NCBI GenBank assembly: GCA_964401575.1
Contig: CAYNZC010000004.1
Location: forward strand, 3,819-67,818
DNA length: 64,000 bases
DNA from: an uncultured Verrucomicrobiota bacterium
GTDB lineage: Bacteria > Verrucomicrobiota > Verrucomicrobiia > Limisphaerales > UBA8199
Reading direction: 5' to 3'
Below are positions 2,152 to 54,661 of the stretch, in pieces (the first letter of the stretch is position 1; the number at the start of each line of letters is the position of its first letter). A program made the position numbers and the translations under genes. Under the pieces are notes generated by a model. The model made no database searches. It was given only the letters and a program-made list of their open reading frames with translations, and was not told the DNA's origin.

Positions 2152-2748
2152 CTAATCAATGCTCTTGATGCGGATCTTGCGGAACTCGATTTTCATGGGC
2201 AGTCCGCGATGAATCTGGAGGCCGATGGGGCCGGGTTGGTTGTATTTTGGATTGGTGTACTCGCTGGCTTTTTCACCGTTGATCCAGACCGTGTAAGTAT
2301 CGCCTCTAGCCTGAAGTTTGAAGTGATTCCAATCATTTGATTTGACCAGCTTGTTTGCGTTCAGCGCGCGGCCCGACATCGGGTAAGGATCTTTTCCACC
2401 CACGTAGAACGATCCGGTCAGGTCAATCTTCTGGCTGCGGGAAATGCCGATTTGCATCTGGCCTTCCGGTTTGCGGAACATGAAGCCGCTGTCGATTTCG
2501 CCGGACCAGCGCGCGTCGGCTTCGATCACAAAATCTTTATAGTCGGATTCTGTGTAGAGCATGCTGCCGGCATTGGATGCGTCATTTTCGCCGATCAGCA
2601 CGCCGTTTTCGACTTTCCAGAATGGATTTGGGTTGGGGACTTTCCATCCGGTAAGATCCTTGCCGTTCCAGACGAATTCGGCTCCGACCAGTGACAACTG
2701 CGAGGCGACACACACGAGGCCAATACCCAGCGCTTTCAGCATTTTCAT
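2152..2748 (-). CDS. DUF1080 (3-keto-disaccharide hydrolase-like) secreted protein
   Basis: ATG at 2748 gives MKMLKALGIGLVCVASQLSLVGA, a signal peptide. WKVENGVLIG...DFVIEADARW...GFMFR...GPIGLQIH is the concanavalin-like DUF1080 pattern. The longer ORF to 2889 has no supporting features. Confidence 0.75.
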   Translation of the reverse strand: MKMLKALGIGLVCVASQLSLVGAEFVWNGKDLTGWKVPNPNPFWKVENGVLIGENDASNAGSMLYTESDYKDFVIEADARWSGEIDSGFMFRKPEGQMQIGISRSQKIDLTGSFYVGGKDPYPMSGRALNANKLVKSNDWNHFKLQARGDTYTVWINGEKASEYTNPKYNQPGPIGLQIHRGLPMKIEFRKIRIKSID

Positions 2749-2997
2749 GTGCCAATAATGTCCTGCCGCAACTCGATTTGCAACCCACACTTGGTGTGCC
2801 GCGGCATGCGTTCTAACGCATCGGATTCGGGCCGCGGGGGAGCATGGTGATCGGGCGCCGGTGACATTGATCGAGAGTCGCGCAATCATCCTGGGCTGCG
2901 GGGCATCACGGCAGAATGTGCCCGGCGCATTCGAGCGCGGTTTTTGTTCAAAGCCTTGCGAAGGGGAAAAGAGGGGTTACCATGCTCTTTGTCATTC

Positions 2998-3318
2998 ATG
3001 CGAGACGCCGACGAACAAGACATTTGCGCTTACCTTAAGCTATGGCGCGGGCACTTCATTTCCGCCGCTGAAATCTGCCGCCGGGCGGCCACGCGAAAAC
3101 GTTTTGATAAGGACAATCGCTGGGCTTACCCGGTGCTCGAGCGGTTGGTCGAGCAGAAGATTGTAGAGTCGGACACCATGGGGCACTACCGGTACATTGT
3201 TCGTGAGCGCAAAGTCGAGACCCCCCGGCCTTTGTCACCCGAGATACGGGCGATCCTCGAGAGGAGTGGAAAACAATTCGACGGCGTCATCGAGGTTCCC
3301 ACGGACGAGGAAACCTGA
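2998..3318 (+). CDS. Hypothetical small protein (106 aa), possibly winged-helix-like
   Basis: ORF 2944-3318; the ATG at 2998 (MRDADEQDICAYLK...) is preferred. I recognise no family. Coding is supported only by ORF length and an amino-acid composition unlike the GC-shadow ORFs. Confidence 0.45.
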   Translation: MRDADEQDICAYLKLWRGHFISAAEICRRAATRKRFDKDNRWAYPVLERLVEQKIVESDTMGHYRYIVRERKVETPRPLSPEIRAILERSGKQFDGVIEVPTDEET

Positions 3319-3320
3319 AA

Positions 3321-3349
3321 GGGCAGGGGAGTGTTGCCTCCCGCTGCCC
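3321..3349. terminator. GC-rich hairpin between convergent genes
   Basis: gggcaggggag / tgttgc / ctcccgctgccc: an 11-bp stem with one bulged g, 3 nt after the 2998-3318 stop and 27 nt before the 3376 stop. Confidence 0.4.
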
Positions 3350-3375
3350 GGAAAACTTCGATGTGTTGAAGTCAA

Positions 3376-3984
3376 CTATTCCGGTTGCGGAGGCTGCCGG
3401 TCCCGCCTGCGTTCCGGATAGCGGGGCCTGTCCTGCGTGCCGGGCCTATCCTGCGGGCGCTCGCGCGGCCCAAACCGATCCATTGGAGGCCGTTGCGCGC
3501 CAGCCTGCCGGAGTTCCCGTTTTTGTTCCGGCGTGAGCGGGGGGTCAATTTTCGCTAAGGTTTTGGCGGTGGCAACCATACGCTCGGTCTCGAGTTCCGC
3601 GATGATCCTGGCCTGTTTGCGCACAGCTTCTTCGTTGAAATTGCCTTCGAGGCTGGTTTCCATAAGCTCCTTTCGTGCCTCAGCGATCTTCTTCTCGCGG
3701 GCAATGGCTTTCTCGCGGTTATCAGCCATCATCTCACGAACGGAGCTGCGTTGCTCCGGGGTAAGCACTGCCATGAGCCGGGCCAGCGGGTCCGCCCCGG
3801 TTGGTCTGAAGCCCTGCGCCCGTCCGAAACCCGGGCGGTCGGGCGGTCTCTGCGCGTCTCGTCGCGCCTCGGGCCTGTCGCGTTCGGGCCCGTCATCGGC
3901 CGGTTGCGCCAGGACGGGCAATGCCAGCGGCAGGGCCAAGCCCGAGAACACCAGGCGAATCCATTCAATTTTACTTAATCTCAT
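3376..3984 (-). CDS. Periplasmic Spy/CpxP-family (LTxxQ motif) protein
   Basis: Signal peptide MRLSKIEWIRLVFSGLALPLALPVLAQP. Two LTPEQ motifs in predicted helical segments (LTPEQRSSVREMM, LTPEQKRELRQ). Arg/Pro-rich tails. Confidence 0.65.
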   Translation of the reverse strand: MRLSKIEWIRLVFSGLALPLALPVLAQPADDGPERDRPEARRDAQRPPDRPGFGRAQGFRPTGADPLARLMAVLTPEQRSSVREMMADNREKAIAREKKIAEARKELMETSLEGNFNEEAVRKQARIIAELETERMVATAKTLAKIDPPLTPEQKRELRQAGAQRPPMDRFGPRERPQDRPGTQDRPRYPERRRDRQPPQPE

Positions 3985-4415
3985 AGTTATCTCCTTTGTT
4001 GGTTATCTTGCCAGACGCTTGGGGTCCTCGTGTAGTTACAGCCGGCTTCATTCTTTTCTTAATGGGCGGGTGGTTTTGCTTGGCAATGCCGTTTGAACGG
4101 TCTAGGTATAGAGGTGTTCTTTGAAAGAGGCGGGTTTCTCCCGCCGCTATGTCACAGCCGGGCGTCAGGGAACCCTGTGAAAATCAGGGACGGTTGCGCC
4201 ACTGTAACGGGTTGCGAGTTCCCATCGCCACTGGAGGACACTCCGGGAAGGCGGGAGCGAGGTTAAAGCCCGAAGTCAGGATATCGGTCCGGTTGTGCTC
4301 GTCAGGCATGGTCATCCATTTCGTGAGATGTATCGCGATGGATGGGTCATGCCGCTTCTCCGACAAGAGAAGGATGAGGCCAGCCTTCTGCCGGTTGCAG
4401 AAGGGCCGCAGAATG

Positions 4416-17502: not shown

Positions 17503-19848
17503 ATGCGGCGTGTCTTTGCTCGCAAGACCATGAGAAGGTTCACCAGCTTGCGTGCCCGCCTCGTCGGGACTGTTTTCGTGGCCCTCGTGCCGGCGTGGGT
17601 GGTGATGTACCTTTTCGCTTACGACCCTCCCTGGATTCGTCTCGGCGCCGGAGCGCTTGCCCTGGGCGCCGCGTGGTTCGGGGGTGAAATGTTCATCATG
17701 CGCCAGGTGCGCGCGATACTCGAGGCGACGAAACTGCTCGCGAGCGGCGATCTTACCGTGCGCACCGGTCTTGAGCGGGAGCCGGGAGAGCTTGGAGATC
17801 TGGCTCGCTCTATCGACCAGATGGCGGCAGCTCTTCAGCGAAAAGACAGGAAGCAGGAGGACGCGCGGGATGACCTGAACCAGCAGGTCATGCGGCAGGC
17901 GGTCGTGAGCGCGCTTGGCCAGTTTGCCCTTCAGAGCAAGGACTTTTTGGCCCTGATGCACCAGGCGGTCATCATGGTAAGCCAGACTCTGCAGGTGGAA
18001 TATGTGTCGATCTTCGAGTTGGACGCCGAAGCGGACATGCTTTCGTTGCGCGCTTCCGTGGGGTGGCTTCCTGAGACAGCGAAGAATTTCCGGGTTCCTC
18101 TGGCCAGGGGATCTCTCTTGTCCTACGCCCTGTCCCGAGGAGAGCCGATATTGGTGAAGGACCTTCTGGATGACCCGAGGTTCGAGCCTGAAAAGTTTTT
18201 CCACGAGCACGGAGCTCGCAGTGCGGTCGTGGTTGCGATTCAGGCCGAGGAGGGGCTGTTTGGCCTCTTGCTGGCTCACACCGGCAATGCCAGCGAATTC
18301 AAGGAGAGCCAGGTGCAATTCATGCTTGGCATAGCGACGGTTCTGGCGATGGCTGTTGTGCGGCGCGGCACGGAGGCGGAGATGGAGAAACTGGCCACGT
18401 TCACCCGTCTCAATCCGGCACCGGCCCTGGAACTGAGCGAAAGCGGCTTGGTCACATACTCCAACGATGCGGCTAACAGGCTGGCGGCTTCATTCGGCGG
18501 TTGCTCTCCTGCGGAGTTGCTCCCGCTCGACTGCATGGCAATCGTGGAGGGATGCCTTTCCTCCGGGGAACCGCTGCTTGACCGGCAGGTTCTTCTGAAC
18601 GGACGCACGCTGTCGTGGTCTTTTCACCCCGTTCTCGCGAGCGGAACGGTGCATGTTTACATCGAGGAGTTGACGCACCGGTTGAATCTGGAAGCCCAGC
18701 TACGCCAGTCTCAAAAAATGGAATCTATCGGCCAGCTCGCCGCCGGCGTGGCACACGACTTTAATAACATGCTCACGATCATCCAGGGGCACTCGGGTCT
18801 GCTCCTGGTCAAACCGGACCTGGCGGAGGAGCACAGGGACAGTGTGCAGGCGGTTTACTTTGCTGCTGAGCGCGCCGCCGCGCTCACGCGGCAGTTACTC
18901 ATGTTTAGCCGCAAGAATGTGATGCAGCCCAAGCAGCTCGATATTGCCGAGGTGATCACCACCACCAGCAAGCTGCTCGAACGCCTGCTGGGAGAAAGCA
19001 TCCGGCTGGTCATGGATTGCGATCCGGATCTGCAAGCCGTCCGCGGGGATTCGGGCATGATCGAACAAGTCATCGTGAACCTCGCGGTCAATGCGCGCGA
19101 TGCCATGTCCCGGGGCGGTACACTGACCATCAGCGCGAATGCCGCGCAGATTGGCGCGGACTATGTTCAGTCGCATCCCGACGCGCGGGAGGGCAATTTC
19201 ATACGGCTCAGTGTGCAGGACACCGGCGCCGGGATTGATGCCGCAACGCTCCCGCACATTTTTGAGCCTTTCTTTACGACCAAGGAAGTCGGGAAGGGCA
19301 CGGGATTGGGCCTTGCAACGGTGTACGGGATTATCAAGCAGCACGATGGGTGGATTGACGTGCAATCCGAGGTGGGACGTGGCACGGTTTTTAGCGTCTT
19401 CTTCCCATCGTGGGCCCGAACCGGCTCTTTTGCCAGGGCGGAGCCGACTGCCGCGCCGGGGATGCGCCAAGGCAAGGAAACCATTCTCCTTGTCGAGGAT
19501 GAATTCGTGCTGCGTGAGCTTGCAAGAGCGATACTGAAAGATTGCGGCTACACGGTTATCGACGCCCCGTCCGGCCGTGAGGGTTTGAAGGTGTGGCAAA
19601 AGGAGAAGGATAAGATAGACCTTGTGCTCACGGACATGATGATGCCGGATGGCGTCTCAGGGATGGACCTGGCCAGCGAGGTGGTCAGGAGCAGGCCCGG
19701 GGTAAAAATCATCTTTGCCAGCGGCTACAGCATGGACGAGCTCGACCCGGAATTCCTCCGGAAGGGACATGGGCATTTCCTGCAAAAACCGTACACGCAC
19801 GTCACCCTCAGCAAGGCGGTGCGGGAGTGTCTCGACAACCAGTCATGA
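17503..19848 (+). CDS. Hybrid sensor histidine kinase / response regulator (HAMP-GAF-PAS-HisKA-HATPase-REC)
   Basis: Two N-terminal TM segments. H-box AAGVAHDFNNML. N/G boxes (NLAVNARDA, DTGAGI, GKGTGLGL). C-terminal receiver ILLVEDE...DLVLTDMMMPDG...K. Confidence 0.85.
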   Translation: MRRVFARKTMRRFTSLRARLVGTVFVALVPAWVVMYLFAYDPPWIRLGAGALALGAAWFGGEMFIMRQVRAILEATKLLASGDLTVRTGLEREPGELGDLARSIDQMAAALQRKDRKQEDARDDLNQQVMRQAVVSALGQFALQSKDFLALMHQAVIMVSQTLQVEYVSIFELDAEADMLSLRASVGWLPETAKNFRVPLARGSLLSYALSRGEPILVKDLLDDPRFEPEKFFHEHGARSAVVVAIQAEEGLFGLLLAHTGNASEFKESQVQFMLGIATVLAMAVVRRGTEAEMEKLATFTRLNPAPALELSESGLVTYSNDAANRLAASFGGCSPAELLPLDCMAIVEGCLSSGEPLLDRQVLLNGRTLSWSFHPVLASGTVHVYIEELTHRLNLEAQLRQSQKMESIGQLAAGVAHDFNNMLTIIQGHSGLLLVKPDLAEEHRDSVQAVYFAAERAAALTRQLLMFSRKNVMQPKQLDIAEVITTTSKLLERLLGESIRLVMDCDPDLQAVRGDSGMIEQVIVNLAVNARDAMSRGGTLTISANAAQIGADYVQSHPDAREGNFIRLSVQDTGAGIDAATLPHIFEPFFTTKEVGKGTGLGLATVYGIIKQHDGWIDVQSEVGRGTVFSVFFPSWARTGSFARAEPTAAPGMRQGKETILLVEDEFVLRELARAILKDCGYTVIDAPSGREGLKVWQKEKDKIDLVLTDMMMPDGVSGMDLASEVVRSRPGVKIIFASGYSMDELDPEFLRKGHGHFLQKPYTHVTLSKAVRECLDNQS

Positions 19849-19867: not shown

Positions 19868-21109
19868 ATGAAACAGCAAACTGAAAACGCGACAATTCAA
19901 GTTAAACAGCGCTCTCCAGGGCACAGCCGCCGATCCTTCCTTGCCAGGGTCGGAATAGCGTCGGCCGCGTTGGGGTTGGCACGCCCCACTGCTCCCGCTG
20001 CGGAGAAAGTAATCCAGGGATTCGAGACCGCTCCTGTGACCGACTCCGCTTCCGCCGGGTGGAAGCCGGTCTCGGATCGAAAGATCCGGATGGGCATTGT
20101 GGGTTACGGTGTTTGCAAGTTCGGCGCCGCGTTTAGTTTCCAGGATCATCCCAACGCGGAGATCGTGGCTGTGAGCGACCTGCTTCCGGATCGTTGCGCC
20201 GAGCTCGCGCAGGTGTGTCGGTGTCAAAAAACCTACCCCTCCTTCGACGAACTCTTGAAGGATGACCGCATCGAGGCTGTGTTTATCGCAACGGACGCCC
20301 CAAGTCACGCCCGCCAATGCATCGAAGCGCTCAAACGAGGCAAGCACGTGGCTACGGCTGTGCCGGCTGTGTTTGGCTCGATCGAAGACGCCCATGAACT
20401 GTATGAGGCTGTAAAAGCCAACAAACGCAACTACATGATGTTCGAGACGTCCACGTTTCATCGGGACCTCTTTGAAATGAGGGAGATTTTTGCCCGGGGC
20501 GGCTTTGGCAAGCTTGTGTATTCCGAAGGCGAGTATTACCACTACATGGCCGAGCCGATAGATTCCTACAAGGGCTGGCGTGTGGGTCTCCCGCCGCAAT
20601 ACTATCCTACTCACTCGAATGCCTATTATGTGGCCGTGGGTTCCGGCCGTTTCACGGCTGTTTCGTGCATGGGCATGCCAAGCGTGCTGCCGCATTTGCA
20701 ACCTGCGAATAATCCCTATAAAAACCCGTTCGGCACGGAAATCGCCAACTTCCGCACGAGCGAGGGCGGCATGTCTCGCATGGCCGTGAGTTGGGATACT
20801 CCCGGCTCCGGCGGAGAGATGGGGAGGATCCGCGGGCAAAAGGGCTCCTACTATGGCTCATATGAAGGGATAGAAAAACCTGGGGTGTTCCGACGACCGC
20901 CACTGCCGCCCAAGGTCGAGCCGGGAGGGCACGGGGGCTCGCATGGTTACCTCTGCAACGAGTTCCTTTTGTCCGTTCTTGAGAATCGCAGGCCGTTGGT
21001 GGATATCTCGATGGCGTTGAACCTCACGGTACCGGGTGTCATCGCCCACCAATCCGCGCTGAAGGATGGTGAGTGGATGAAGATTCCTGTGTTTGAGCCG
21101 GTTTCCTGA
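19868..21109 (+). CDS. Gfo/Idh/MocA family oxidoreductase with Tat signal
   Basis: SRRSFLARVGIASAALGLA twin-arginine leader. IRMGIVGYGVCKFG Rossmann motif. EKP-like region (ETSTFH). Confidence 0.8.
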   Translation: MKQQTENATIQVKQRSPGHSRRSFLARVGIASAALGLARPTAPAAEKVIQGFETAPVTDSASAGWKPVSDRKIRMGIVGYGVCKFGAAFSFQDHPNAEIVAVSDLLPDRCAELAQVCRCQKTYPSFDELLKDDRIEAVFIATDAPSHARQCIEALKRGKHVATAVPAVFGSIEDAHELYEAVKANKRNYMMFETSTFHRDLFEMREIFARGGFGKLVYSEGEYYHYMAEPIDSYKGWRVGLPPQYYPTHSNAYYVAVGSGRFTAVSCMGMPSVLPHLQPANNPYKNPFGTEIANFRTSEGGMSRMAVSWDTPGSGGEMGRIRGQKGSYYGSYEGIEKPGVFRRPPLPPKVEPGGHGGSHGYLCNEFLLSVLENRRPLVDISMALNLTVPGVIAHQSALKDGEWMKIPVFEPVS

Positions 21110-21112
21110 AAC

Positions 21113-21886
21113 TCACAGTCTGCCCAACAATCGGAGCAGCCCGTCCAGAATAGTGAGCGGATGCGGCGGACAACCCGGAATATACAGGTCCACCGGGAAA
21201 AGTTTGTCTGCTCCTCCCACTGTCTGGCCAGTGCCACTGAACGGCTCACCCGAGATGGCACAGGCGCCCACTGCAATTACCAGCTTCGGATCAGGTGTGG
21301 CCTCGTAGGTCTTGCGAAGCGCGAGTTCCATGTTGCGCGTTACTGGGCCTGTGATCAGGAGCCCGTCTGCGTGGCGCGGGGAGGCGACGAGTTGAATGCC
21401 AAATCGGCCAAGGTCCCACCCGATTGTGCCTAGAACGTTGATATCGGATTCGCACGCGTTGCATCCGCCCGCGCTCACCTGTCGCAGCCTGAGGGAGCGG
21501 CCGAAGAGCTTTCTGAGTTTTTCGTCCAGCGCCGCAGCCAGTCTCAGTTCCTCTTTGCCGGGTTCGCCGACAACCAGATCTCCCGCCTTGCGCACTGCCA
21601 TGCGGTGATCGCTGGTCTGCGTAAGCGCACCCGGCTCGCATGCCTGGACGCACGCCGCGCAAAAAGTGCAGCGGCCAAGATCGAGTCTTAGCAAGGGCGG
21701 AGCTCCCTGGAATGCCTCCGTGGGACAGACCTCGGCGCATTTGTGGCAGTCTGTGGGGCAGCGCGCAGATTCGAGCCTGAGGCTGCCGCCATGACGATCC
21801 GGGAGTGACGGCGCTTTGCCTTCGGGATAGGCCATGGTCTGGCAACCGCGCTGCAACCGATGGGCTAATGTGCTTAGGACAAACAT
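21113..21886 (-). CDS. Ferredoxin (2x[4Fe-4S]) fused to NuoB/HycG-like small subunit
   Basis: N-terminal CPTDCHKCAEVCP and CTFCAACVQACEP. C-terminal GGCNACE, SPRHADGLLITG, GACAISGEPF, IPGCPPHP (NuoB/HycG cluster-binding pattern). Confidence 0.85.
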   Translation of the reverse strand: MFVLSTLAHRLQRGCQTMAYPEGKAPSLPDRHGGSLRLESARCPTDCHKCAEVCPTEAFQGAPPLLRLDLGRCTFCAACVQACEPGALTQTSDHRMAVRKAGDLVVGEPGKEELRLAAALDEKLRKLFGRSLRLRQVSAGGCNACESDINVLGTIGWDLGRFGIQLVASPRHADGLLITGPVTRNMELALRKTYEATPDPKLVIAVGACAISGEPFSGTGQTVGGADKLFPVDLYIPGCPPHPLTILDGLLRLLGRL

Positions 21887-21888
21887 GG

Positions 21889-23364
21889 TTAAAGGTCAAA
21901 ACCGCAGTATGACAAGTTGAAGCTCTTGTTGCAGATAGGGAAGTCGTAAATGGCTTCCCCCCGCAGGGCCAGTGCCAATCCCGTCCAATTATGGAATGAC
22001 GGATCCGTCACCTTGTACCGCGCGAACCTGCCGGCGACATCCGTGATTGCCACGTGGCAGACTTCGCCGCGCCAGCCCTCGACTAATGCAACCGCGATGC
22101 TTTCGGCCGTTGGTCGGGCAATGGGCTCAAACGTCAGTCCTGCCGGAGCCGCGGCGAGTTGCTCAAGTATGAAATTGCCGGAGCGTTGGATTTCGAGCCA
22201 GCGAACGCGAGCGCGCGCAAAAACATCCCCTCCAGGCCAAACAGCGACCGGCGCCTGGGCAAAACGATACCAGCCGGCCGGGTGATCGTAACGCACATCG
22301 CGCACGAGGCCACAGGCCCGGGCGGCGGGCCCCACGAGCCCGATTTCCCCGGCCTGAGCGGACGAAACAACCCCGAGCCGCTCAAACCGGGCGCGGACAG
22401 AAGACGAGTCCCACAGCCATTCAGCCGCCTTTTCCACATCCTGCAATACGGGTTTAATCTGTTTTTCCAGCTCCGCGATCCGCGCCGGATCCATGTCTCT
22501 TCGGCAGCCGCCCGGAACTGCCAGCGCGCGTCCGAACCGATTGCCGCACAGGAGAGCTGTCATGTTCAGAAAATCCCCGCGCAATTTGCCGCATGCCGAT
22601 GACGTGGGCAGGAAGGCTACATCGTTGGCAAGCGCGCCGATGTCGCCTGTGTGATTTGCCAGCCGCTCCAATTCGAGGGCAATGGCCCGCAGCCATTGAG
22701 CCCGCAGCGGCGCCTCAGCTCCCGAGAGCGATTCGAGCACGGAAGCGTAAGCTGTGGCATGCGCGATGGAAGAGTCTCCCGCGAGAGTCTCCATGCGGGC
22801 GAGGGTGGCTTTGTGCGGGCCTCCTTCCAGCGAGGGCTCGATGCCGCGGTGCTGATAGCCCAAAGCGATTTCCAGGTGCAGCACCTCCTCGCCGGCGCAT
22901 TGAAAACGGAAATGACCCGGCTCGATCACTCCCGCATGCACAGGACCCACGGCGACTTCGTGGACTTCACCCCCGTTTGCGGTGAAGAAATCGCCGACTG
23001 CCGGGCCCGGCCCGTGATCGCGCCGGACAGGTTTGAGCCAGGGGTGGCCATCCGGGACGATTTGGCATTGCTCCCAGAGCTCGCGCTCGAACATGTGCGC
23101 CTGTGGAATCCTCGGGGTCAGAGACGGATAGGACTGCTTAAACGGCAGGCTGCGGCCAATCCGGAGAGAATTGGAGGAATCGAGGGCCAGCACTGAAACA
23201 ATGCTCACCCCATCGGCTCGAGGAATCCCGAACCAGGAACTGAGCCGGGCGCCAGCTAGCACCCGGCGCTCTGTGGCGTCCGCAAGGTCTGCAATGGAGA
23301 CTTCCGGCACCTCGCTCAAAGGCAGGCTGGAGCCGTTGTTCAACTCAATGTAGGGTGCGCTCAT
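21889..23364 (-). CDS. NuoC+NuoD / HycE-HyfG-like large subunit homologue lacking [NiFe] cysteine ligands
   Basis: GPVHAGVIEPGHFRFQCAGEEVLHLEIALGYQHRGIE is the classic group-4 large subunit/NuoD block. The ATG at 23364 overlaps the upstream stop (ATGA). The N-terminal ~130 aa are NuoC-like. Confidence 0.85.
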   Translation of the reverse strand: MSAPYIELNNGSSLPLSEVPEVSIADLADATERRVLAGARLSSWFGIPRADGVSIVSVLALDSSNSLRIGRSLPFKQSYPSLTPRIPQAHMFERELWEQCQIVPDGHPWLKPVRRDHGPGPAVGDFFTANGGEVHEVAVGPVHAGVIEPGHFRFQCAGEEVLHLEIALGYQHRGIEPSLEGGPHKATLARMETLAGDSSIAHATAYASVLESLSGAEAPLRAQWLRAIALELERLANHTGDIGALANDVAFLPTSSACGKLRGDFLNMTALLCGNRFGRALAVPGGCRRDMDPARIAELEKQIKPVLQDVEKAAEWLWDSSSVRARFERLGVVSSAQAGEIGLVGPAARACGLVRDVRYDHPAGWYRFAQAPVAVWPGGDVFARARVRWLEIQRSGNFILEQLAAAPAGLTFEPIARPTAESIAVALVEGWRGEVCHVAITDVAGRFARYKVTDPSFHNWTGLALALRGEAIYDFPICNKSFNLSYCGFDL

Positions 23365-24800
23365 GGAATTGGAATCAGGATTTGGGCGGCGCTGCTCCAG
23401 ACTTCCAGCAGGAAACGTGGGGTAAAAAGACCCAGCCAAAGCGATGCGGCCAGCAACAGGAGCGGAGGCGCGACGGTGCCGGCGGCTTCACGCAGGGAGG
23501 CAGTGTTCCACGCGGCTTTGCGCGGGCGGCCATCCACAATGGAGAAGACAAGGCGCGTCATGCCGATGAAAGCCAGGAGCAGGCAAACGAGGAAGATGGT
23601 GGCGGTGATGTACTGATGGGAACCCACGGCAGCGCGAAGGATTCCCAACTCGCTGAAAAACGGGCCGAACGGCGGACAGGCCGTTACCGCGAGCAGACCA
23701 ACAACAAAAATCCTGGAGGAAAGCGGCGTCACCCAGGTCATCCCGGCAACTTCGATGTTTGTACGTGCTCCGGCCGCGCGGCGGAGGTTGCCGGCGCTCA
23801 GGAACAACGCGCCCTTGGTCAGAACGTTGCTCCACACGTGAAAGAGAGCGGCGCCGAGGCCGCCGACGCCGATGGAGGCGCCGATCGTCAGGATTCCCAT
23901 GTGCTCGACGCTCGAGTAAGCGAGCATGCGTTTGAAGTCCGGCGTGCCCAGCAGGAACAGCGCGGCGATGATCATTGAGAAAAGACCGAGGCAAAGCAAT
24001 GTCAGGGACGCGATGCTTTCCAATCCGGCGGCTGACACAACAGCCCGAACACGCAGCAGGGCGACGAATGCCACGGTCGTCATTCCCCCGGCAAGCATCG
24101 CGCCGATCATGCCGGGCGCTTCCCCGTAAGCGTCCGGCTTCCATGTATGCATCGGCGCCAGGCCCATCTTGGTGCCGAAGCCGGCCAGCAGCAACACCCA
24201 CGCAGCCAGAAGCCATGGTTTGGAGAGAGACCCTGCGGCGGCCTTAAGGCCTGTGAACGTGAGGTCGCCCTCCCCGCCGCTGTGCATGGACGAATAACCG
24301 AGAAAGAACGCTCCCAGCAGCGAAAGGGCGATTCCGGTGCCGCCGACCAGCAGGTACTTCCATGTAGCTTCGAACGCTCGAGGGGTGCCGTTGAAGTGCA
24401 GCAGCGGGACTGTTGCCAGCGTCGCGCCTTCCGCGGCGACCCAAAGCAGCCCAAGGTGCTGTGCCAGCAGCGAAAGGGTGATGAGACCTGTGAGTGCCAG
24501 CAGTGTGGCAATGAAAACACGGTTTGGCCGCTCCTTCCTGGTTTTCAGATAAGACACGCCGTATCCCGCGCACGCGAGAAAAAGGATTGAAACCGCCGGA
24601 AGCACCGCGCGTGCGATGGGGTCAAAGCCCAGCCAAAGGGCCGGATTCCAGGTGGGCGGGTCCAGAAACATCCAGAGCGAGAGGCCCGAATGCGGCAGCG
24701 CAGCCGCCGGCAGAAGCCAGGGACGAGTGTCCTCTTTAGGCCAGACCAATGCGATGATTGCGGCCGCGAACGGGATGGCAATGAGAATGATTTCTTTCAC
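23361..24800 (-). CDS. HyfF / NuoN-M-like antiporter-type membrane subunit
   Basis: 479 aa and polytopic. GFGTKMGLAPMHTWKPDAYGEAP and LAYSSVEHMG proton-pumping subunit motifs. GTG start overlaps the upstream stop (GTGA). Confidence 0.85.
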   Translation of the reverse strand: MKEIILIAIPFAAAIIALVWPKEDTRPWLLPAAALPHSGLSLWMFLDPPTWNPALWLGFDPIARAVLPAVSILFLACAGYGVSYLKTRKERPNRVFIATLLALTGLITLSLLAQHLGLLWVAAEGATLATVPLLHFNGTPRAFEATWKYLLVGGTGIALSLLGAFFLGYSSMHSGGEGDLTFTGLKAAAGSLSKPWLLAAWVLLLAGFGTKMGLAPMHTWKPDAYGEAPGMIGAMLAGGMTTVAFVALLRVRAVVSAAGLESIASLTLLCLGLFSMIIAALFLLGTPDFKRMLAYSSVEHMGILTIGASIGVGGLGAALFHVWSNVLTKGALFLSAGNLRRAAGARTNIEVAGMTWVTPLSSRIFVVGLLAVTACPPFGPFFSELGILRAAVGSHQYITATIFLVCLLLAFIGMTRLVFSIVDGRPRKAAWNTASLREAAGTVAPPLLLLAASLWLGLFTPRFLLEVWSSAAQILIPIP

Positions 24801-25438
24801 TCGTGAAGACTCGTAAGTTTGCGCGTGTCCAGGGTGTCAAAGGCGCGCTGGATGCGATCCGCGATGATGCCGATCACAAACACGCCGACCGTGAGGTCAA
24901 GAAGGATGCCGGTTTCAACCACCAGGGGCATCGCATTGATGAGCAGCAGGCCGAACAGGTAAATGCCATTCTCGAGCAGGAGATAGCCGCAGACCTGCGA
25001 AATGGCCTTGGTCCTGCCGATGAGCAGCAGCAGTCCCGCCACCACCGTTGCCAGAGCGGCTGGGACCAGGAGGACGTTGGAATGCTCCGGTAACAGCGGC
25101 AACGCTCCCGAAAAAGCCACCGCGCCAGTCGTTGCGGCGGCCCCCAGTAACAGCGAGGGAACAAAGCCGATCAGCGGCTCTTCCTCACGGTCCACATTCG
25201 CCGAGCGCATGGCGCGCCGGAGCAGGTGCGGGATGAGAAAGCCCTTGATTCCGATGGTTCCCACCGCAACCAGCAGGCCCAGCAACGTCATGTGCGAGCC
25301 GATCAGCAGGGGGAGGATGCCAATCACCATTCCCTGCATTGCTGCTGCGCGGATGATCGAGGGAATCCTGCTGCTGCCAAGAGCAAGGAGATTCAGGCCC
25401 ATGGCCACGCCCGTAAATAGGTTCAGGGATGCATTCAT
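24797..25438 (-). CDS. HyfE-like small membrane subunit
   Basis: 213 aa, all TM helices. Its position between the NuoH-like and NuoN-like genes is as in hyf operons. ATG at 25438 overlaps the upstream stop (ATGA). Confidence 0.7.
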   Translation of the reverse strand: MNASLNLFTGVAMGLNLLALGSSRIPSIIRAAAMQGMVIGILPLLIGSHMTLLGLLVAVGTIGIKGFLIPHLLRRAMRSANVDREEEPLIGFVPSLLLGAAATTGAVAFSGALPLLPEHSNVLLVPAALATVVAGLLLLIGRTKAISQVCGYLLLENGIYLFGLLLINAMPLVVETGILLDLTVGVFVIGIIADRIQRAFDTLDTRKLTSLHE

Positions 25439-26358
25439 TGGAGTGAGGATCCTTTCCACGCCGCCAGCAGGCCAAACAGGCACAGCAGAAAGGCGGTGAT
25501 CAGGAGTAGCGGAACCCGCCGGAAAGCGAAACGGGCCAGCAACGACTCAACGGCGCCCACCCCCACCATGATGATTCCCAGGGCAAGCACCGTCACGGCC
25601 ATCCCTCCCAATCCGCCCAGGTGAAGGCCCGGTAGCACGGCATCCGCCAGCAGTACCGCAAAGAGCAGGAGTTTGATGGCGCTGCCGTGCAGAATTGCGG
25701 CAAATGGCGGGCCGCTATGGTCCAGGACCATGGCCTCATGCACCATCGTCAGTTCAAGATGGGTGTTGGGGTCGTCGAACGGAACCCGGCAGTTCTCGGC
25801 CAAAAGGACGATGAAAAGCCCGGCGCCAATCAGCATGACGCCCGAGCCGGCAAAGGGCGTAAGCATGCCGGACAGAGAAAGGCTGCCGGTGCGGACGCTC
25901 AGGGTAATCAGGGCTGTGATCAAGGCGGCTTCCGCCAGTACCGCGTAGGACACCTCGCGCGCGGTGCCCATGCCCTCGAAGGCGGAGCCGGTCTCCAGTG
26001 AGGCGCACGCGATGGCAAACCGTGCCACTGCGAGCAGGTAAATGAACAGGAAGGCATCGCCACGAAATGACACTGTCGATCCAAATGGCCCAATTGGCAG
26101 AAGCGCGGCCGCGCAGCTAATGGCGATCCATGCAATGGCCGGCCCGATGATGTGTCCGGGCGAGGCTGCCGTGCTGATGACCACTCCCTTGCGCCAGAGC
26201 CGCGCGAGGTCGTAATAAAGCTGCAGCACAGGCGGTCCTTTTCGACCGGCGACCCACGCCTTGACCTTGTTGATGATGCCTGGGCCTAATGGCGCCAGGG
26301 CCATCCAAAAGGCGACACGAACAACAAACTCGGCAATGGTGGAGAGTGTGGCGCTCAT
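25435..26358 (-). CDS. HyfC / NuoH-like membrane subunit
   Basis: 307 aa. KVKAWVAGRKGPPVLQLYYDLARLWRKG and ENCRVPFDDPNTHLELTMVHEAM (NuoH/HycD-like motifs). ATG at 26358 overlaps the hyfB-like stop. The upstream extension of ORF 25435-26847 was rejected. Confidence 0.85.
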   Translation of the reverse strand: MSATLSTIAEFVVRVAFWMALAPLGPGIINKVKAWVAGRKGPPVLQLYYDLARLWRKGVVISTAASPGHIIGPAIAWIAISCAAALLPIGPFGSTVSFRGDAFLFIYLLAVARFAIACASLETGSAFEGMGTAREVSYAVLAEAALITALITLSVRTGSLSLSGMLTPFAGSGVMLIGAGLFIVLLAENCRVPFDDPNTHLELTMVHEAMVLDHSGPPFAAILHGSAIKLLLFAVLLADAVLPGLHLGGLGGMAVTVLALGIIMVGVGAVESLLARFAFRRVPLLLITAFLLCLFGLLAAWKGSSLQ

Positions 26359-28319
26359 GGAAGTCCTTTGAACATGGCAGCTCCCATCCAAGTCAGGAGC
26401 GCAATGCCAACCAGGCCGAAAACCAGGTAGAGAATGTAGGCCTGCAGGCGCCCGTGCTGATAGCTCCGGACTGCGGTTGAAAACCGCATCGTGATATGTC
26501 CTATGGGGGTGATCACTCTTTCGAGCACTGTCTCGGGCGTGTGCTCGGATGAAAAAGCCGTTTGTGGAAACAATTCCGTTGGAGGAACACGGTGCCGCTC
26601 CGGTCGGAGTATCCACTCGAACCATGAAACAATTGTTGAAGCGAAAGAACCGGCTGTGTACTGCATCCGCGGGGTGGGAGCGGCATAGCCGCAATCCCAT
26701 GTGCCGAATCTGCGGGCGCCGTTTTTGCGGACACGCCCGGCAAGCACCCAGGATACCAGCAGAGCCAGGCCCAGAAAAGCCAGGTTCGCGGCGCCCAGCG
26801 TGGACAGGGACGGTTCCAAACGAATGGCGGACCATGATGGGTTCCATGCCCTCGCAACGGTTTGGAGAGCCGGCGCCAGGGCCAGCGGAGCCAGGCCGAC
26901 GAACGCGCAGATCGCGGCCAGCACCAGCATGGGGATGCGCATGGCCGACCCCGATTCGCAGGCCTTCCCTGCAGCGGCGGAGCGGGGCAGGCCCAGGAAC
27001 ACGATGCCCACGACCTTAACGAAGCAGGCGAGGGCAAGCGCCCCTGTGATCGCGAGCGAGATCGCAGCCGGAACCGCGGCCCATGCGGCAGGTCCGCGCG
27101 CATCGATCGCATCAAATAAACCGAGGTAGAGGAGCCATTCGCTGACGAAGCCGTTTAGCGGCGGCAGGCCGGATATGGCCGCCGCGCCCAGGGTGAATAG
27201 ACCGGCCGTCCATGGCATGGAACGCCATAGGCCTCCCAGGCTGCTCATGTGTCGCGTGCCTGTGGCGTGCAGAACAGACCCTGCTCCAAGAAATAGCAGC
27301 GCCTTGAAGACGCCGTGGTTCCAAACGTGCAAGAGCCCCCCGGCGATTGCCAGGGCGCCCCATTCGGGATTTCCGGATTGAGCAGCAATCGCCGCCAGGC
27401 CCACGCCGAGCAGGATGATGCCGATGTTCTCGACACTGTGGTAAGCCAGCAGACGTTTGAGGTCGTGCTGCCCAAGGGCGAAGGCGACGCCAAGAACCGA
27501 GCTGATTGCGCCGAGGGCAAGAATCGTCCACCCCGCGCCGGCCGGAAGCGGTAGCCAGCCTGAGAATCTGACAATACCGTAGATTCCCATCTTGATAGCC
27601 ACGCCGGACATGATTGCGGAGACATGGCTCGGCGCGTTTGCGTGGGCTGAAGGCAGCCAGATGTGAAGTGGAAACAGGCCCGCCTTCACCCCGAACCCGA
27701 ACAAAGCAAGCCAGAAGAGCGGCGCCAACGAGGCGTCTGTGAAAGGTCCAATGGTCCACGAACCTGTGCGCGCGGCAAGGAGCGCAAAAAAGGCAAACAG
27801 GCAAAGGGTGCCGGCATGGGAGGTGGCAAGGTAAATCCACCCGGCGAGGCGCACCTCGCGCCGCTGGCGATCCAGCGTGATCAGGAAGTAAGCACAGACA
27901 GCAAACGCTTCCCACGCAATGAGGAAGTGCAGTCCGTTTGCCGCCGTAAGAACCGCACCCATGGAAAAGAGCAGGCAACTCCACCACGCCCGGCCGGCGG
28001 GCGCCGAGCGCGGGTGCGCGCGGTCCGGCCAATACTCCATGGAGTAAAGAGCGCCGGCAGCCCCAATGGTCACGAGCAGAACCAGGAAAAAAGCGCTCAG
28101 CGCATCAAGCCGCAAATGCACAGGCTGAGACCCGAGGGTCAGGCACGCCATGAATTCCCAGGGTTGTCCTGAGAAGAGAACCATAGCAGCTCCGGCCAGG
28201 CCTGCAGCGGCGGCAATAAACGTGCAACCCAGCCACAGGCGCGGCGCGCGAAAGGCGGCAGCGATCCCGAAAACAAGAGCTGCGGCGGCAATAAGAAGAA
28301 AAGTGCCCGGGTTCATCAT
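26355..28319 (-). CDS. HyfB / NuoL-like antiporter-type membrane subunit
   Basis: 654 aa. FGFGVKAGLFPLHIWLPSAHANAPSHVSAIMSG and LAYHSVENIG motifs. C-terminal extension as in HyfB. Confidence 0.85.
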   Translation of the reverse strand: MMNPGTFLLIAAAALVFGIAAAFRAPRLWLGCTFIAAAAGLAGAAMVLFSGQPWEFMACLTLGSQPVHLRLDALSAFFLVLLVTIGAAGALYSMEYWPDRAHPRSAPAGRAWWSCLLFSMGAVLTAANGLHFLIAWEAFAVCAYFLITLDRQRREVRLAGWIYLATSHAGTLCLFAFFALLAARTGSWTIGPFTDASLAPLFWLALFGFGVKAGLFPLHIWLPSAHANAPSHVSAIMSGVAIKMGIYGIVRFSGWLPLPAGAGWTILALGAISSVLGVAFALGQHDLKRLLAYHSVENIGIILLGVGLAAIAAQSGNPEWGALAIAGGLLHVWNHGVFKALLFLGAGSVLHATGTRHMSSLGGLWRSMPWTAGLFTLGAAAISGLPPLNGFVSEWLLYLGLFDAIDARGPAAWAAVPAAISLAITGALALACFVKVVGIVFLGLPRSAAAGKACESGSAMRIPMLVLAAICAFVGLAPLALAPALQTVARAWNPSWSAIRLEPSLSTLGAANLAFLGLALLVSWVLAGRVRKNGARRFGTWDCGYAAPTPRMQYTAGSFASTIVSWFEWILRPERHRVPPTELFPQTAFSSEHTPETVLERVITPIGHITMRFSTAVRSYQHGRLQAYILYLVFGLVGIALLTWMGAAMFKGLP

Positions 28320-29032
28320 TTCTGGGGTAAATGCTCCGTCGTCGTCTTGAGCTCTTCCGCCGGGCAGGATTGACTGAGCGCTCGAAAGACCTCGGCATCC
28401 GGCGCGCCGTTTTTGATGGACTGACCGAAGGGCCCACGCGTAATTGAAGCGCTGAGCCCCGCGAGTATTTCCAGGTGCGACCGTGGAGTCGGGGCCATAA
28501 AGAACAGCAGGTAGCGCACGGGCAGGCCGTCCGGGGTCGCTTCTTCGAGTGGCATCGGGGCGCTAAGCATCATGAGCGAGATCAGGCCGTGATCTCGTCC
28601 AAGCGCCACCCTGGAGCGCAGGTGCGGCAGCGCAAAGTGTTTCCCCACAGGAGCCCAGGTGAGGGCGCCGGGCGATTGAACGCGGTGAACCAGCATCTGG
28701 CGTATCTGTGGTGTGAGGCCCCCAAGACGTTCGATGACTCCCGCCAGGGTTAATGGCACATCTGCGGGATGAACCTCCCGCCAGATGCCGCCGCGGCGCA
28801 GCATTGCCTCAATCGCGCTGCAGTTCTCCGGATTGTCCTGCGCGGCGGAAGAAAGGAATCCTGCCCGTGCAGCAAGCCCGCGTTCCGTTGCCCATCCCGC
28901 GACTTGAGAGCGATCAAAAAGAAGACGGCCACTGTCCTTGACGCAAGGCAGGGCGTCATGCCGGACCCACGCCATGACAACGGACTCTTCGACCCCCAGG
29001 GATTGTGCGACTTGTATGAGGTTGAGATGCAT
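28316..29032 (-). CDS. HTH (excisionase/MerR-like) + PTS EIIA type-2 domain protein, copy 1
   Basis: MHLNLIQVAQSLGVEESVVMAWVRHDALP HTH. EIIA-2 core ...VGKHFALPHLRSRV...GLPVRYLLFFMAP. The stop overlaps the hyfB-like ATG (ATGA at 28316-28319). Confidence 0.75.
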   Translation of the reverse strand: MHLNLIQVAQSLGVEESVVMAWVRHDALPCVKDSGRLLFDRSQVAGWATERGLAARAGFLSSAAQDNPENCSAIEAMLRRGGIWREVHPADVPLTLAGVIERLGGLTPQIRQMLVHRVQSPGALTWAPVGKHFALPHLRSRVALGRDHGLISLMMLSAPMPLEEATPDGLPVRYLLFFMAPTPRSHLEILAGLSASITRGPFGQSIKNGAPDAEVFRALSQSCPAEELKTTTEHLPQK

Positions 29033-29071
29033 GTGATGGAATTGCCCCGGTTTGCGGCGGTTGCAGATGGT

Positions 29072-29794
29072 TTATGCCGGCTGTATTGCTTCGTGTTTGC
29101 CGGAGCGCCCCTTGACGGAGGAATCCCACTCTGTCTGCAGGCGATCCAATTCGGCCAGAATGTCCTCACGGGAGGCCTGAATCTGGATGAGGCGCATGAA
29201 ATGCCGGTCCCGCAGCGCGTATGCGAGCCGAGACTGCAAATGGAGTTGGGCTTTGACGCGCGGGCTGATCAGTGTGAACAACGCGTGCACCGGTTGCCCG
29301 TCGAGCGCCCCGTAATCGACGGGTCGCTCAAGAAAGCAGAGGGCCATGAGCGGCTTTGACAGGTGCAGCACCACCGGGTTGCGCAAATGCGGCATCGCCA
29401 CCCCGTTGCCAAGCGCTGTGGGCTCGATTCTTTCGCGCGCGAGAAGAACCTGCAGCAGGAATTCGCGATCCACCTCCTCCGGCAGGCGGAGCATTTCGAC
29501 AATCTGCCTCAGGCAGGCGGCTGGATCCTGACCGGAAATCCGGTAGTAGATCCCGCCGTTCAGGAGCGCATCCTTAAGAGCAGGGGGAGCGTCCGATTCC
29601 GACTCGGGTTCCGCAAATATCGCGGGGGAAACGCGAAGCTTTTCAGCGGTAGCCCAGGCCAGCAACTCGGCGCGATTGAACCGATATTGGCCGCTGATCC
29701 GGTAACCCGGCAGCTTCCCATCCTCGATCCAACGATAGACGGTCTTCTCGGAAACCTCCAGAAGCGCCGCGACATCTTTTACATTCAGTTGCAT
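29072..29794 (-). CDS. HTH (excisionase/MerR-like) + PTS EIIA type-2 domain protein, copy 2
   Basis: ATG at 29794: MQLNVKDVAALLEVSEKTVYRWIEDGKLPGYR HTH. EIIA-2 core LGNGVAMPHLRNPVV...DGQPVHALFTLISP. Paralogous to copy 1. Confidence 0.75.
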   Translation of the reverse strand: MQLNVKDVAALLEVSEKTVYRWIEDGKLPGYRISGQYRFNRAELLAWATAEKLRVSPAIFAEPESESDAPPALKDALLNGGIYYRISGQDPAACLRQIVEMLRLPEEVDREFLLQVLLARERIEPTALGNGVAMPHLRNPVVLHLSKPLMALCFLERPVDYGALDGQPVHALFTLISPRVKAQLHLQSRLAYALRDRHFMRLIQIQASREDILAELDRLQTEWDSSVKGRSGKHEAIQPA

Positions 29795-29825
29795 GCAGCC
29801 ACATTCACTGACCAACTGTCCCGGA

Positions 29826-29842
29826 TTGGACAATTTTGGACA
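29826..29842 (-). promoter_or_regulatory. Direct repeat TTGGACA x2 with 10-bp phasing upstream of the HTH-EIIA / hyf-like operon
   Basis: ttggaca at 29826-29832 and at 29836-29842, 32-48 nt upstream of the ATG at 29794. An AT-rich segment with TTGACT (minus strand) lies further upstream. Function not demonstrated. Confidence 0.25.
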
Positions 29843-29923
29843 TGGTTCATAATTATGGGAAAAAAGTCAAGAGCCGCCATCCCCAAAGCGTTCGCTTTCT
29901 GGCTTCAAACAGAGGGCCTCGCC

Positions 29924-30463
29924 TCACTGGTTCTCTTGCGCTCTGGCGTCTGCTTTACGTGCCAGCAGCCAAAGAAGATCGGATAGACGGTTCAAATAAA
30001 CCAGGAACTCCCGCCTGGTGTCTCCGGCCTCGGAAAGCCCACATGCGGCGCGTTCGGCGCGTCTGCAAATGGTTCGTGCCAGGTCCAGGGCAGCTCCCGC
30101 TTTGGTATCGCCCGGCATGGCCCAGCCGCCAAAGCTTACGCCGCTGCTTTCGAGGTCTTGGATAAGTGTTTCAACGGTTCGGATATGATCGTTGGTGAAC
30201 CGGGCGTAGCCTTCTTTCTGGTACCGCTCAGCGTCCTCCGGCGCGGTCGCCAGCTCACCCATGATGGGGACGAGGTGTTTTTGAATGCTTTGCAGGGCGG
30301 CACGGGTGGATGGTTCGGTGCAGGCAGCCCGTGCCACGCCGAGGGCGGCGTTGAGTTCGTCCACCGTGCCGTAGGCCTCCACCCTGGGGTGGCATTTGGA
30401 AACGATACGCCCATACATGAGGCTTGTTGTGCCCTGGTCTCCGCGTTTTGTGACGATGCTCAT
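29924..30463 (-). CDS. PduO-type ATP:cob(I)alamin adenosyltransferase
   Basis: ATG at 30463: MSIVTKRGDQGTTSLMYG...RVEAYGTVDELNAALGVARA, the canonical PduO-type N-terminus. ~180 aa. Confidence 0.85.
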   Translation of the reverse strand: MSIVTKRGDQGTTSLMYGRIVSKCHPRVEAYGTVDELNAALGVARAACTEPSTRAALQSIQKHLVPIMGELATAPEDAERYQKEGYARFTNDHIRTVETLIQDLESSGVSFGGWAMPGDTKAGAALDLARTICRRAERAACGLSEAGDTRREFLVYLNRLSDLLWLLARKADARAQENQ

Positions 30464-47867: not shown

Positions 47868-48218
47868 ATGATCCCGGTGCAACCCACTGTCATGAAAACC
47901 AGCGAGCCGCCGACCAAAGGTTTCAGTCACATTGTTATCTTCTGGACCGATCCAAAACAACCGGGCGCCGCGGACGAGCTCGTCGCTCTGGCCCGGACGC
48001 TGTTGCGGCCCATTCCAGGGATTGTTCATTTTCACGTCGGCAGGATGGTTCCCAGTTCCCGTTCCGTTGTTGACCAGTCTTACCAGGTCGGGCTGAACCT
48101 CCAGTTCAAAGACAAAATGGCGCACGACGAATACCAGACGCACCCGCGTCACATCGAGTTTGTGGAAAAATTCTTCAAACGTCTCTGCCTCAAGGCGCTG
48201 ATTTACGATTTTGAATGA
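47868..48218 (+). CDS. Dabb (stress-responsive alpha/beta barrel) domain protein
   Basis: FSHIVIFW...IPGIVHFHVGR...DKMAHDEYQTHPRHIEFV pattern. Alternative ATG at 47892. Confidence 0.7.
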   Translation: MIPVQPTVMKTSEPPTKGFSHIVIFWTDPKQPGAADELVALARTLLRPIPGIVHFHVGRMVPSSRSVVDQSYQVGLNLQFKDKMAHDEYQTHPRHIEFVEKFFKRLCLKALIYDFE

Positions 48219-54519: not shown

Positions 54520-54661
54520 ATCATTTTGCTTTTTGCCTGCCTCTTTCAACCCGGCCGCCGTGTTTTCTCCGCGATTTTTTGCACCATAACTGCTTTCGCC
54601 CGTTTTCTCAATCAATCGCCAACTTGAACGCTCACTGCGTCCAGTGTAGGCTCCTATCCTA

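Follow-up and report, generated by a model that had tools for sequence, protein, structure and literature searches.

The 64,000-nucleotide window analysed here (the whole stretch of DNA, from an uncultured Verrucomicrobiota bacterium of UBA8199; GCA_964401575.1, contig CAYNZC010000004.1, positions 3,819-67,818) carries at 21889-23364, on the minus strand, an open reading frame (ORF) for a homologue of [NiFe]-hydrogenase large subunits in which all four NiFe-ligand cysteines have been replaced. The encoded protein is very probably EhrL, the non-hydrogenase large subunit of an Ehr complex, and the content and order of the surrounding operon match ehrABCDLS. The loss of the four ligands is a direct sequence fact and not a statistical pattern, and the same substitutions run throughout a large family; it is not new, being the defining property of the named Ehr family (PMC3569383, PMC6349859, PMC10284858, PMC12342949). 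As an overall explanation we favour, on balance, an EhrL that serves an Ehr complex acting as a redox-driven ion pump without H2 chemistry.

EhrL has no cysteine at the four NiFe-ligand columns

The large subunit and the two motif remnants that replace its metal site, located by alignment, are as follows:

21889-23364, minus strand: ehrL, a fused NuoC-like and NuoD/HycE-like large subunit of 491 amino acids (aa) (Pfam PF00329 and PF00346), with its stop codon at 21889-21891.
22771-22782, minus strand: remnant of the L1 motif, Ala195-Gly196-Asp197-Ser198, replacing Cys-Gly-x-Cys.
21901-21912, minus strand: remnant of the L2 motif, Ser485-Tyr486-Cys487-Gly488, replacing Cys-x-x-Cys.

Pfam assigned an N-terminal Complex1_30kDa domain (PF00329, NuoC-like) followed by Complex1_49kDa (PF00346, NuoD/HycE-like), these being the only families reported at E ≤ 0.01, with no match to NiFeSe_Hases (PF00374). 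The top NCBIfam match was NuoD, and every NuoD-type score was far under its curated cutoff (175 bits versus 360 for NF004739; 134 versus 459 for TIGR01962). Among PDB sequences searched with phmmer, the best match was E. coli HycE (7z0s_E, E=1.7e-42), followed by MbhL (6cfw_L), Thermus thermophilus Nqo4 (2fug_4) and MbsL (6u8y_L, E=7e-21). EhrL descends from the large subunits of Hyf/Hyc-type group-4 membrane-bound [NiFe]-hydrogenases.

The phmmer alignment pairs 'etlAGDSsiAH' of EhrL with 'drvCGICgfAH' of HycE, and 'ksfNLSY' with 'gslDPCY', placing the first three ligand columns (C1, C2 and C3) at Ala195, Ser198 and Ser485. The same residues were obtained with MAFFT against E. coli hycE, hyfG and nuoCD (from NC_000913), which also set the fourth column (C4) at Gly488; this last position was taken from small accurate MAFFT alignments, the fast mode applied to 99 large subunits being gapped there. 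Read against the L1 motif (RxCGxCxxxH), EhrL has T-L-A-G-D-S-S-I-A-H, with the His kept and both Cys gone; against the L2 motif (DPCxxCxxH/R) it has N-L-S-Y-C-G-F-D-L, with Ser and Gly in the Cys columns. The protein ends three residues past the C4 column (…GFDL-stop), without a C-terminal extension. Because Ala, Ser, Ser and Gly replace all four ligand cysteines, EhrL is predicted to be unable to bind the NiFe(CN)2CO cofactor.

These alignments bear out an earlier note on this DNA, which had proposed, by comparison with the HycE motif, that Ala and Ser occupy the two N-terminal cysteine positions and Ser and Gly the two C-terminal ones, with one Cys displaced by one residue and another nine residues upstream. 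The displaced cysteines are Cys487, which immediately precedes the C4 column, and Cys478, a further nine residues upstream; the motif spacing, which the note had feared to be off by a residue, was correct, and the alignment to HycE, HyfG and NuoCD leaves a residue other than Cys at each of the four ligand columns. The N-terminal block (22759-22791) corresponds to residues 192-202, ETLAGDSSIAH, and the C-terminal block lies exactly at 21892-21945. The translation contains the blocks GPVHAGVIEPGHFRF, LGYQHRGIE and ARMETLAGDSSIAHATAYASVLE (residues 189-211), and the C-terminus DFPICNKSFNLSYCGFDL.

The ehr operon and its partner subunits

ehrL is the seventh of eight closely packed minus-strand genes (two regulators, described below, and then six structural genes). 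The structural genes span 21113-28319 in the order A-B-C-D-L-S; their ORFs are intact and the overlaps or gaps between them small. The partners of ehrL are:

26355-28319, minus strand: ehrA, HyfB/NuoL-like antiporter-like subunit, 654 aa (PF00361; NCBIfam hydrogenase 4 subunit B, 548 bits versus a cutoff of 667).
25435-26358, minus strand: ehrB, HycD/NuoH-like membrane subunit, 307 aa (PF00146).
24797-25438, minus strand: ehrC, HyfE-like small membrane subunit, 213 aa (NCBIfam HyfE at E=8.6e-22, under the cutoff; gene call in the identical contigs L004-L006).
23361-24800, minus strand: ehrD, HyfF/NuoN-like antiporter-like subunit, 479 aa (PF00361; best NCBIfam match hydrogenase 4 subunit F, under the cutoff).
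21113-21886, minus strand: ehrS, 257-aa fusion of a NuoI/HycF-like 2x[4Fe-4S] ferredoxin domain and a NuoB/HycG-like small subunit (PF01058 and Fer4).

The N-terminal half of EhrS holds two ferredoxin-type Cys motifs, and its C-terminal half the residues GGCNAC…GAC…GCPP, which provide the four ligands of the proximal [4Fe-4S] cluster in the alignment with HycG, HyfI and NuoB. All 12 Fe-S cysteines, enough for three [4Fe-4S] clusters, are conserved, each in 63-69 of the 72 orthologues aligned. Conservation of the eight cysteines of the N-terminal domain in these orthologues shows that the real form of EhrS is the one of 257 aa, whose gene begins 2 nucleotides past the ehrL stop. Gene callers on the identical contigs L004 and L005 shortened ehrS to 193 aa, losing the N-terminal 2x[4Fe-4S] domain.

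EhrA and EhrD were aligned with E. coli NuoL/M/N, HyfB/D/F and HycC, and the residues at the pump positions of the transmembrane helices (TM) are:

TM5 glutamate: EhrA Glu137; EhrD Glu124.
TM7 lysine: EhrA Lys212; EhrD Lys211.
TM8 histidine/lysine: EhrA His331, His335 and Lys339; EhrD His321 and Lys329.
TM12 glutamate: EhrA Glu394; EhrD Glu384.

Lys243 is also present in EhrA. Judged by this alignment, both antiporter-like subunits carry the full Glu/Lys/His set that serves proton translocation in complex I. The operon contains no NuoEFG-like genes. A promoter and terminator scan of 20800-30200 returned counts equal to the shuffled expectation and did not define the operon boundaries.

Ehr complexes were reportedly surveyed by Marreiros et al. 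in 2013 (as cited in PMC3569383 and PMC6349859), and are said to have been first named in Geobacter. Ehr, the "energy-converting" or "Ech hydrogenase-related" complexes encoded by ehrABCDLS, are set apart by the missing Ni/Fe ligands, with the EhrL of D. ruminis as an exception that has four Cys (PMC3569383). Missing ligands have since served to recognise Ehr in Sulfobacillus (PMC4378227), Margulisbacteria and relatives (PMC6349859), comammox Nitrospira (PMC10284858) and ammonia-oxidising archaea (PMC10432482), all with function unknown, and in 2025 in Nitrospirales, with the function still unknown (PMC12342949). ehrABCDLS was also reported in the genome of a verrucomicrobial methanotroph, Methylacidiphilum (PMC6688271), and the Ehr proteins of G. 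sulfurreducens, whose physiological role has "never been investigated", increase in abundance on formate (PMC7894505).

Distribution of the Ehr family

More than 8000 homologues share sequence words with EhrL. In the top 120, identity to EhrL is about 70% and the length mostly 493 aa, the few with organism names come from Verrucomicrobiota and Opitutaceae metagenome-assembled genomes, and the annotations among them read "hydrogenase" or "NADH-quinone oxidoreductase subunit C". When representatives clustered at 50% identity were searched exhaustively with HMMER, 5864 relatives scored at E ≤ 1e-3, of which 823 reached E ≤ 1e-30. The ligand columns were surveyed in the 95 full-length sequences among the best 150 of these representatives: 91 are ligand-less large subunits (nine retain the first Cys only and none retains more), with the consensus [A/S/C]-G-D-[S/T] at L1 and N-L-S-Y-[C/S/A]-G-x-D-L-stop at L2, and the other four retain Cys at the ligand columns (RVCGACS… / NLCY[S/A]C…). 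One four-Cys sequence comes from a cluster labelled "hydrogenase large subunit [Desulfotomaculum sp.]"; this sister matches the published D. ruminis exception (PMC3569383) and links the family found here to the Ehr of the literature. In a rough neighbour-joining tree, too crude to tell one ligand loss from several, the four-Cys relatives are nested inside the Cys-less family.

A scan of one genome per species found an EhrL relative in at least 594 species. The best 80 loci come from Verrucomicrobiota, Planctomycetota, Geobacterales, Geothrix and other Acidobacteriota, Desulfovibrionaceae, Spirochaetota, Gemmatimonadota, Lentisphaerota, Cloacimonadota, Omnitrophota and others. The order A-B-C-D-L-S, mapped by tblastn, is found in every locus long enough to show it (about 50 of the 80), and full-length identity reaches 52-53% to the large subunits of Geomonas limicola, Geobacter sp., Pelobacter sp. 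and Geobacteraceae with the same operon. Within ±10 kb of ehrL in the 80 loci, no genes for a HycB/HyfA-type connector, formate dehydrogenase, NuoEF, Hyp or HycI recur. Likewise, no conserved partner oxidoreductase emerged when crude ORF calls from the flanking DNA of 81 loci were clustered. This gave only the six ehr genes, HTH-EIIA regulators (a helix-turn-helix fused to an EIIA domain), a hybrid histidine kinase in 8 loci and SulP in 6, apart from several clusters that were antisense-ORF artefacts of DNA rich in guanine and cytosine (GC).

Some loci carry additional ehr-like genes. Many genomes have a second ehrA-like gene, in many loci upstream, and in two loci (L009, 2565-9959; L054, 13341-20569) a divergent second six-gene ehr-like cluster lies in tandem, with 37-39% identity; its large subunit is likewise Cys-less ('SGDSS/SGDTT … NKSFN[L/A]SYSG'). 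In the window, a 781-aa hybrid histidine kinase (HAMP-GAF-HisKA-HATPase-receiver) is encoded at 17503-19848 on the plus strand, near the 3' end of the operon, and its homologues flank eight related loci.

Conservation, selection and predicted fold of EhrL

The former ligand region is among the most constrained parts of EhrL, because Gly196, Asp197, Ser485, Gly488 and Asp490, together with Glu148, His151 and Arg432, have zero entropy in 81 orthologues, against a median column entropy of 1.37 bits. In the same orthologues position 195 is A/S/G, position 198 is T/S/A, and the C-terminus reads …SY[C/A/S]G[H/F/Y/N/V]D[L/M/R]. Glu148 corresponds to the glutamate in the EPGHFRF loop of hydrogenases, and Arg432 to the arginine in ExxRG. 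Taken together, the alignments suggest that the former metal site was remodelled, and not degraded, into a conserved polar pocket, which would consist of Gly196-Asp197-Ser/Thr198, Ser485, Gly488 and Asp490 with the retained hydrogenase-type Glu148 and Arg432. Cys478 is kept in 78 and Cys487 in 75 of the 81 close orthologues. A beta-carbonic-anhydrase-like zinc site (Cys478/Cys487/His489/Asp197) was rejected as a family feature: the positions vary in the wider family and residue 489 is Phe here.

NG86 estimates of dN/dS (nonsynonymous over synonymous substitution rates) for verrucomicrobial ehrL orthologues lay at 0.07-0.16 between the closest pairs and at 0.13-0.18 in comparisons with the gene of the window, values that are approximate given a dS of 0.8-1.9, near saturation. 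An AlphaFold2 model of EhrL, built from a 16-sequence alignment, had a mean predicted local distance difference test (pLDDT) score of 86.5 and a predicted template modelling (pTM) score of 0.87, and Foldseek matched it to HycE first (7z0s_E, TMq 0.83) and then to NuoCD chains. Only the linker between the domains, the beta1-beta2 loop (138-151) and the final five residues (487-491) are modelled with low confidence; these elements would pack against the small and membrane subunits. No solved Ehr structure was present among the PDB sequence (phmmer) or fold (Foldseek) matches.

The earlier note had taken the ligand loss for a selective loss of the active site as opposed to general decay, and had called for a dN/dS analysis and a structure prediction. 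That view is upheld by the alignments, the conservation in at least 594 species genomes, the purifying selection among orthologues (dN/dS 0.07-0.18), the HycE-like predicted fold and the conserved former ligand columns. The opposite view, a decaying pseudogene or dead remnant of a formate hydrogenlyase operon, would explain the loss of all four catalytic ligands expected of a dead enzyme, but it is already refuted by the conservation data: apart from the low dN/dS, the ORFs are intact and closely packed with small overlaps or gaps, hundreds of relatives share the protein length and C-terminus, and the gene order is kept across many phyla.

Regulators and SulP transporters beside ehr

The two regulator genes that precede ehrA are:

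29072-29833, minus strand: regulator A, HTH_17 (excisionase/MerR-like) plus PTS_EIIA_2 (PtsN-like) (Pfam, NCBIfam).
28316-29032, minus strand: regulator B, HTH_17 plus PTS_EIIA_2 (Pfam), its stop overlapping the ehrA start.

In the alignments both keep the His that matches the phospho-site His73 of E. coli PtsN, 'GNGVAMPH' of regulator A aligning with 'GNGIAIPH' of PtsN; this suggests that ehr may be controlled by a phosphorelay of the nitrogen-type phosphotransferase system, PTS(Ntr). Of the 56 loci with enough upstream DNA, 39, from many phyla, have a homologue of these regulators immediately ahead of ehr. A SulP and STAS anion transporter gene is found in or beside the ehr cluster in five genomes (L007, L011, L017, L020 and L082), four of Verrucomicrobiota and one of Omnitrophota; in L007 it lies at 2448-4256, between two regulator genes. 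The window has no SulP gene. Neither the HTH-EIIA nor the SulP link to ehr is mentioned in the Ehr papers cited here by PMC number.

hyp genes and the rest of the window

Four hydrogenase maturation genes lie 25-33 kb from the ehr operon:

48211-50559, plus strand: hypF.
54662-54880, plus strand: hypC.
54937-56031, plus strand: hypD.
56035-57096, plus strand: hypE.

No ORF with an RxCGxC or DPCxxC motif was found in the 64-kb window, nor were hypA, hypB or an endopeptidase gene seen there, and a HycI homologue was absent from both the window and the 80 loci. The hyp genes probably serve a genuine [NiFe]-hydrogenase whose genes lie in another part of the genome. An MqnC/CofH-like radical SAM gene (50574-51767, plus strand) lies 3' of hypF and possibly belongs to the futalosine route to menaquinone; on its other side, a 1020-aa protein with DUF7133, cytochrome c and HEAT regions is encoded at 51691-54753 on the minus strand. 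GC skew is strongly negative (-0.22) in the 52-54 kb segment.

Proposed mechanism and alternatives

The mechanism that we propose for Ehr, redox-driven ion pumping with neither production nor consumption of H2, we regard as evenly balanced between right and wrong. A soluble low-potential carrier, most plausibly ferredoxin, would dock at the exposed NuoI-like domain of EhrS, as in Ech/MBH, and electrons would run along the three [4Fe-4S] clusters to a metal-free substrate pocket where EhrL, EhrS and EhrB meet. The redox step would be coupled to H+ or Na+ translocation through EhrA-D, or be reversed by the membrane potential. No H2 chemistry would take place. Menaquinone is one candidate acceptor, though one for which the canonical ligands are missing. 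Expression of ehr is probably under the two adjacent HTH-EIIA(Ntr)-type regulators.

Several points weigh against this picture. The electron donor, the acceptor, the ion and the direction are all inferred, and the AlphaFold2 model falls to low confidence precisely where the pocket is formed, in the beta1-beta2 loop (138-151) and the C-terminal tail (487-491). The complex I quinone ligands His38 and Tyr87 of Nqo4 align to Ile147 and Gly196 (HMMER against 2fug_4). The comparison with Geobacter covers Geobacterales loci rather than the named protein GSU0743, and the tree is a rough neighbour-joining one. Finally, the authors who observed the rise of Ehr on formate consider that Ehr may be connected with the formation of H2 from formate (PMC7894505), a view that fits poorly with a non-hydrogenase role.

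A complex-I-like ferredoxin:menaquinone oxidoreductase, in which the pocket binds the quinone headgroup and the complex is a minimal analogue of complex I free of the NADH module, is unlikely, although several observations speak for it: NuoD is the top NCBIfam match of EhrL, Pfam gives Complex1_49kDa and not NiFeSe_Hases, the NuoH-like subunit, NuoB-type cluster and pump residues are all there, an MqnC/CofH-like gene lies within the window, and quinone was also speculated to be the acceptor by others (PMC6349859). However, the NuoD score stays at 175 bits under a cutoff of 360, the hydrogenase-type EPGHFRF loop is kept, and the closest match in both fold and sequence is HycE, not NuoD. To the Ile147 and Gly196 that stand in place of the Nqo4 ligands is added the Tyr of E. 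coli NuoCD, which MAFFT also aligns to Gly196; with the canonical ligands absent from the aligned positions, quinone reduction would need a different binding mode. Ehr has furthermore been reported in genomes without an identified quinone biosynthesis pathway (PMC6349859).

The HTH-EIIA regulators in 39 of 56 loci and the SulP and STAS genes in five genomes are the grounds for a further reading, distinctly speculative, in which the former NiFe pocket is a newly evolved catalytic or ion-binding site, metal-free or differently metallated, and the complex a PTS(Ntr)-controlled, ferredoxin-driven pump for ion or anion homeostasis, not for respiration. The invariant Asp197, Ser/Thr198 and Ser485 would make up this site together with the retained Glu148 and Arg432, and the pump might energise bicarbonate or sulfate uptake of the SulP type.

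That the complex is a non-redox ion transporter, a Mrp-like cation/proton antiporter or pH-homeostasis device with EhrL and EhrS as a structural or regulatory relic, seems improbable to us. The Methylacidiphilum study does list ehrABCDLS as a possible pH-homeostasis system (PMC6688271). The antiporter-like subunits are intact, and in some genomes the cluster includes a SulP transporter gene. PtsN-type regulators, which in E. coli are classically linked with K+ and ion homeostasis, adjoin ehr. Against it stand the twelve Fe-S cysteines kept across phyla and the invariance of the remodelled pocket, a conservation that argues for selection on electron transfer, whereas a relic module would drift.

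A cryptic hydrogenase that holds a metal cofactor on non-canonical ligands (e.g. Cys478, Cys487, Asp197 and, in relatives, His489) is highly improbable. The retention of Cys478 (78/81) and Cys487 (75/81) in close orthologues, the presence of hypC, hypD, hypE and hypF in the window, and the increase of Ehr on formate in G. sulfurreducens (PMC7894505) would fit it. Nevertheless, in the wider family position 487 is C/S/A, position 489 is H/F/N/V (Phe here) and Cys478 is often I/V/N/S, the PF00374 match is absent, hyp or endopeptidase genes adjoin ehr in none of the 80 loci, and H2 does not induce Ehr expression in N. moscoviensis (PMC12342949).

Significance and comparison with known systems

The redox-driven pump with a non-proton substrate is the hypothesis to which the field is narrowed by the invariant pocket, the three Fe-S clusters, the intact pump and the EIIA-type regulator; of these, the conserved pocket residues and the association with the regulator are testable handles on Ehr function. 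Annotations routinely mislabel Ehr genes as "hydrogenase" or "NADH-quinone oxidoreductase subunit C"; calling the gene EhrL prevents a false inference of H2 metabolism for the host organism. This matters for a system that is widespread (at least 594 species genomes here, to which the literature adds nitrifiers, Geobacter, methanotrophic Verrucomicrobia and candidate phyla). The single locus described here adds no new kind of biology and does not alter existing knowledge of Ehr.

Compared with the Ehr complexes of Geobacter and others, the locus has the same six-gene content and order, a ligand-less large subunit, a NuoB-type cluster in the small subunit, two Mrp/NuoL-like subunits with NuoH- and HyfE-like ones, and 52-53% identity to the large subunits of Geobacterales genomes with that operon. 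It differs in nothing fundamental: ehrA is single, whereas many relatives including Geobacterales have two, and two HTH-EIIA genes lie upstream.

Hyf/Hyc (7z0s) is the best match in sequence and fold, and the gene order mirrors hyfB-C-E-F-G-(H+I); the N-terminal NuoC-like domain fused to the large subunit, the EPGHFRF loop and the ExxRG arginine are shared. In contrast, the Ehr described here has neither the ligand cysteines nor the C-terminal extension, it lacks genes for HyfA/HycB, HyfD, HyfJ/HycH and HycI and a linked formate dehydrogenase, and its HyfH-like and HyfI-like proteins form one chain (EhrS).

Complex I offers in NuoD/Nqo4 another descendant of the hydrogenase large subunit without NiFe ligands, which partners a NuoB-type [4Fe-4S] cluster, NuoH and antiporter-like subunits; EhrL differs from it by the absence of equivalents of His38 and Tyr87 (T. 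thermophilus numbering), of the NADH-input module and of scores above the cutoffs. The sulfane reductase of P. furiosus (MBS/Mbx, 6u8y), treated by some authors as a hydrogenase-related complex (PMC6349859), is likewise a respiratory complex of hydrogenase origin, whose altered active site reduces a substrate other than protons. Its MbsL (6u8y_L) is nevertheless a weaker match to EhrL than HycE, MbhL and Nqo4 (E=7e-21, versus 1.7e-42 for HycE). MBS has a 13-subunit, Mrp-rich architecture, whereas the operon analysed here consists of six structural genes with no small Mrp subunits.

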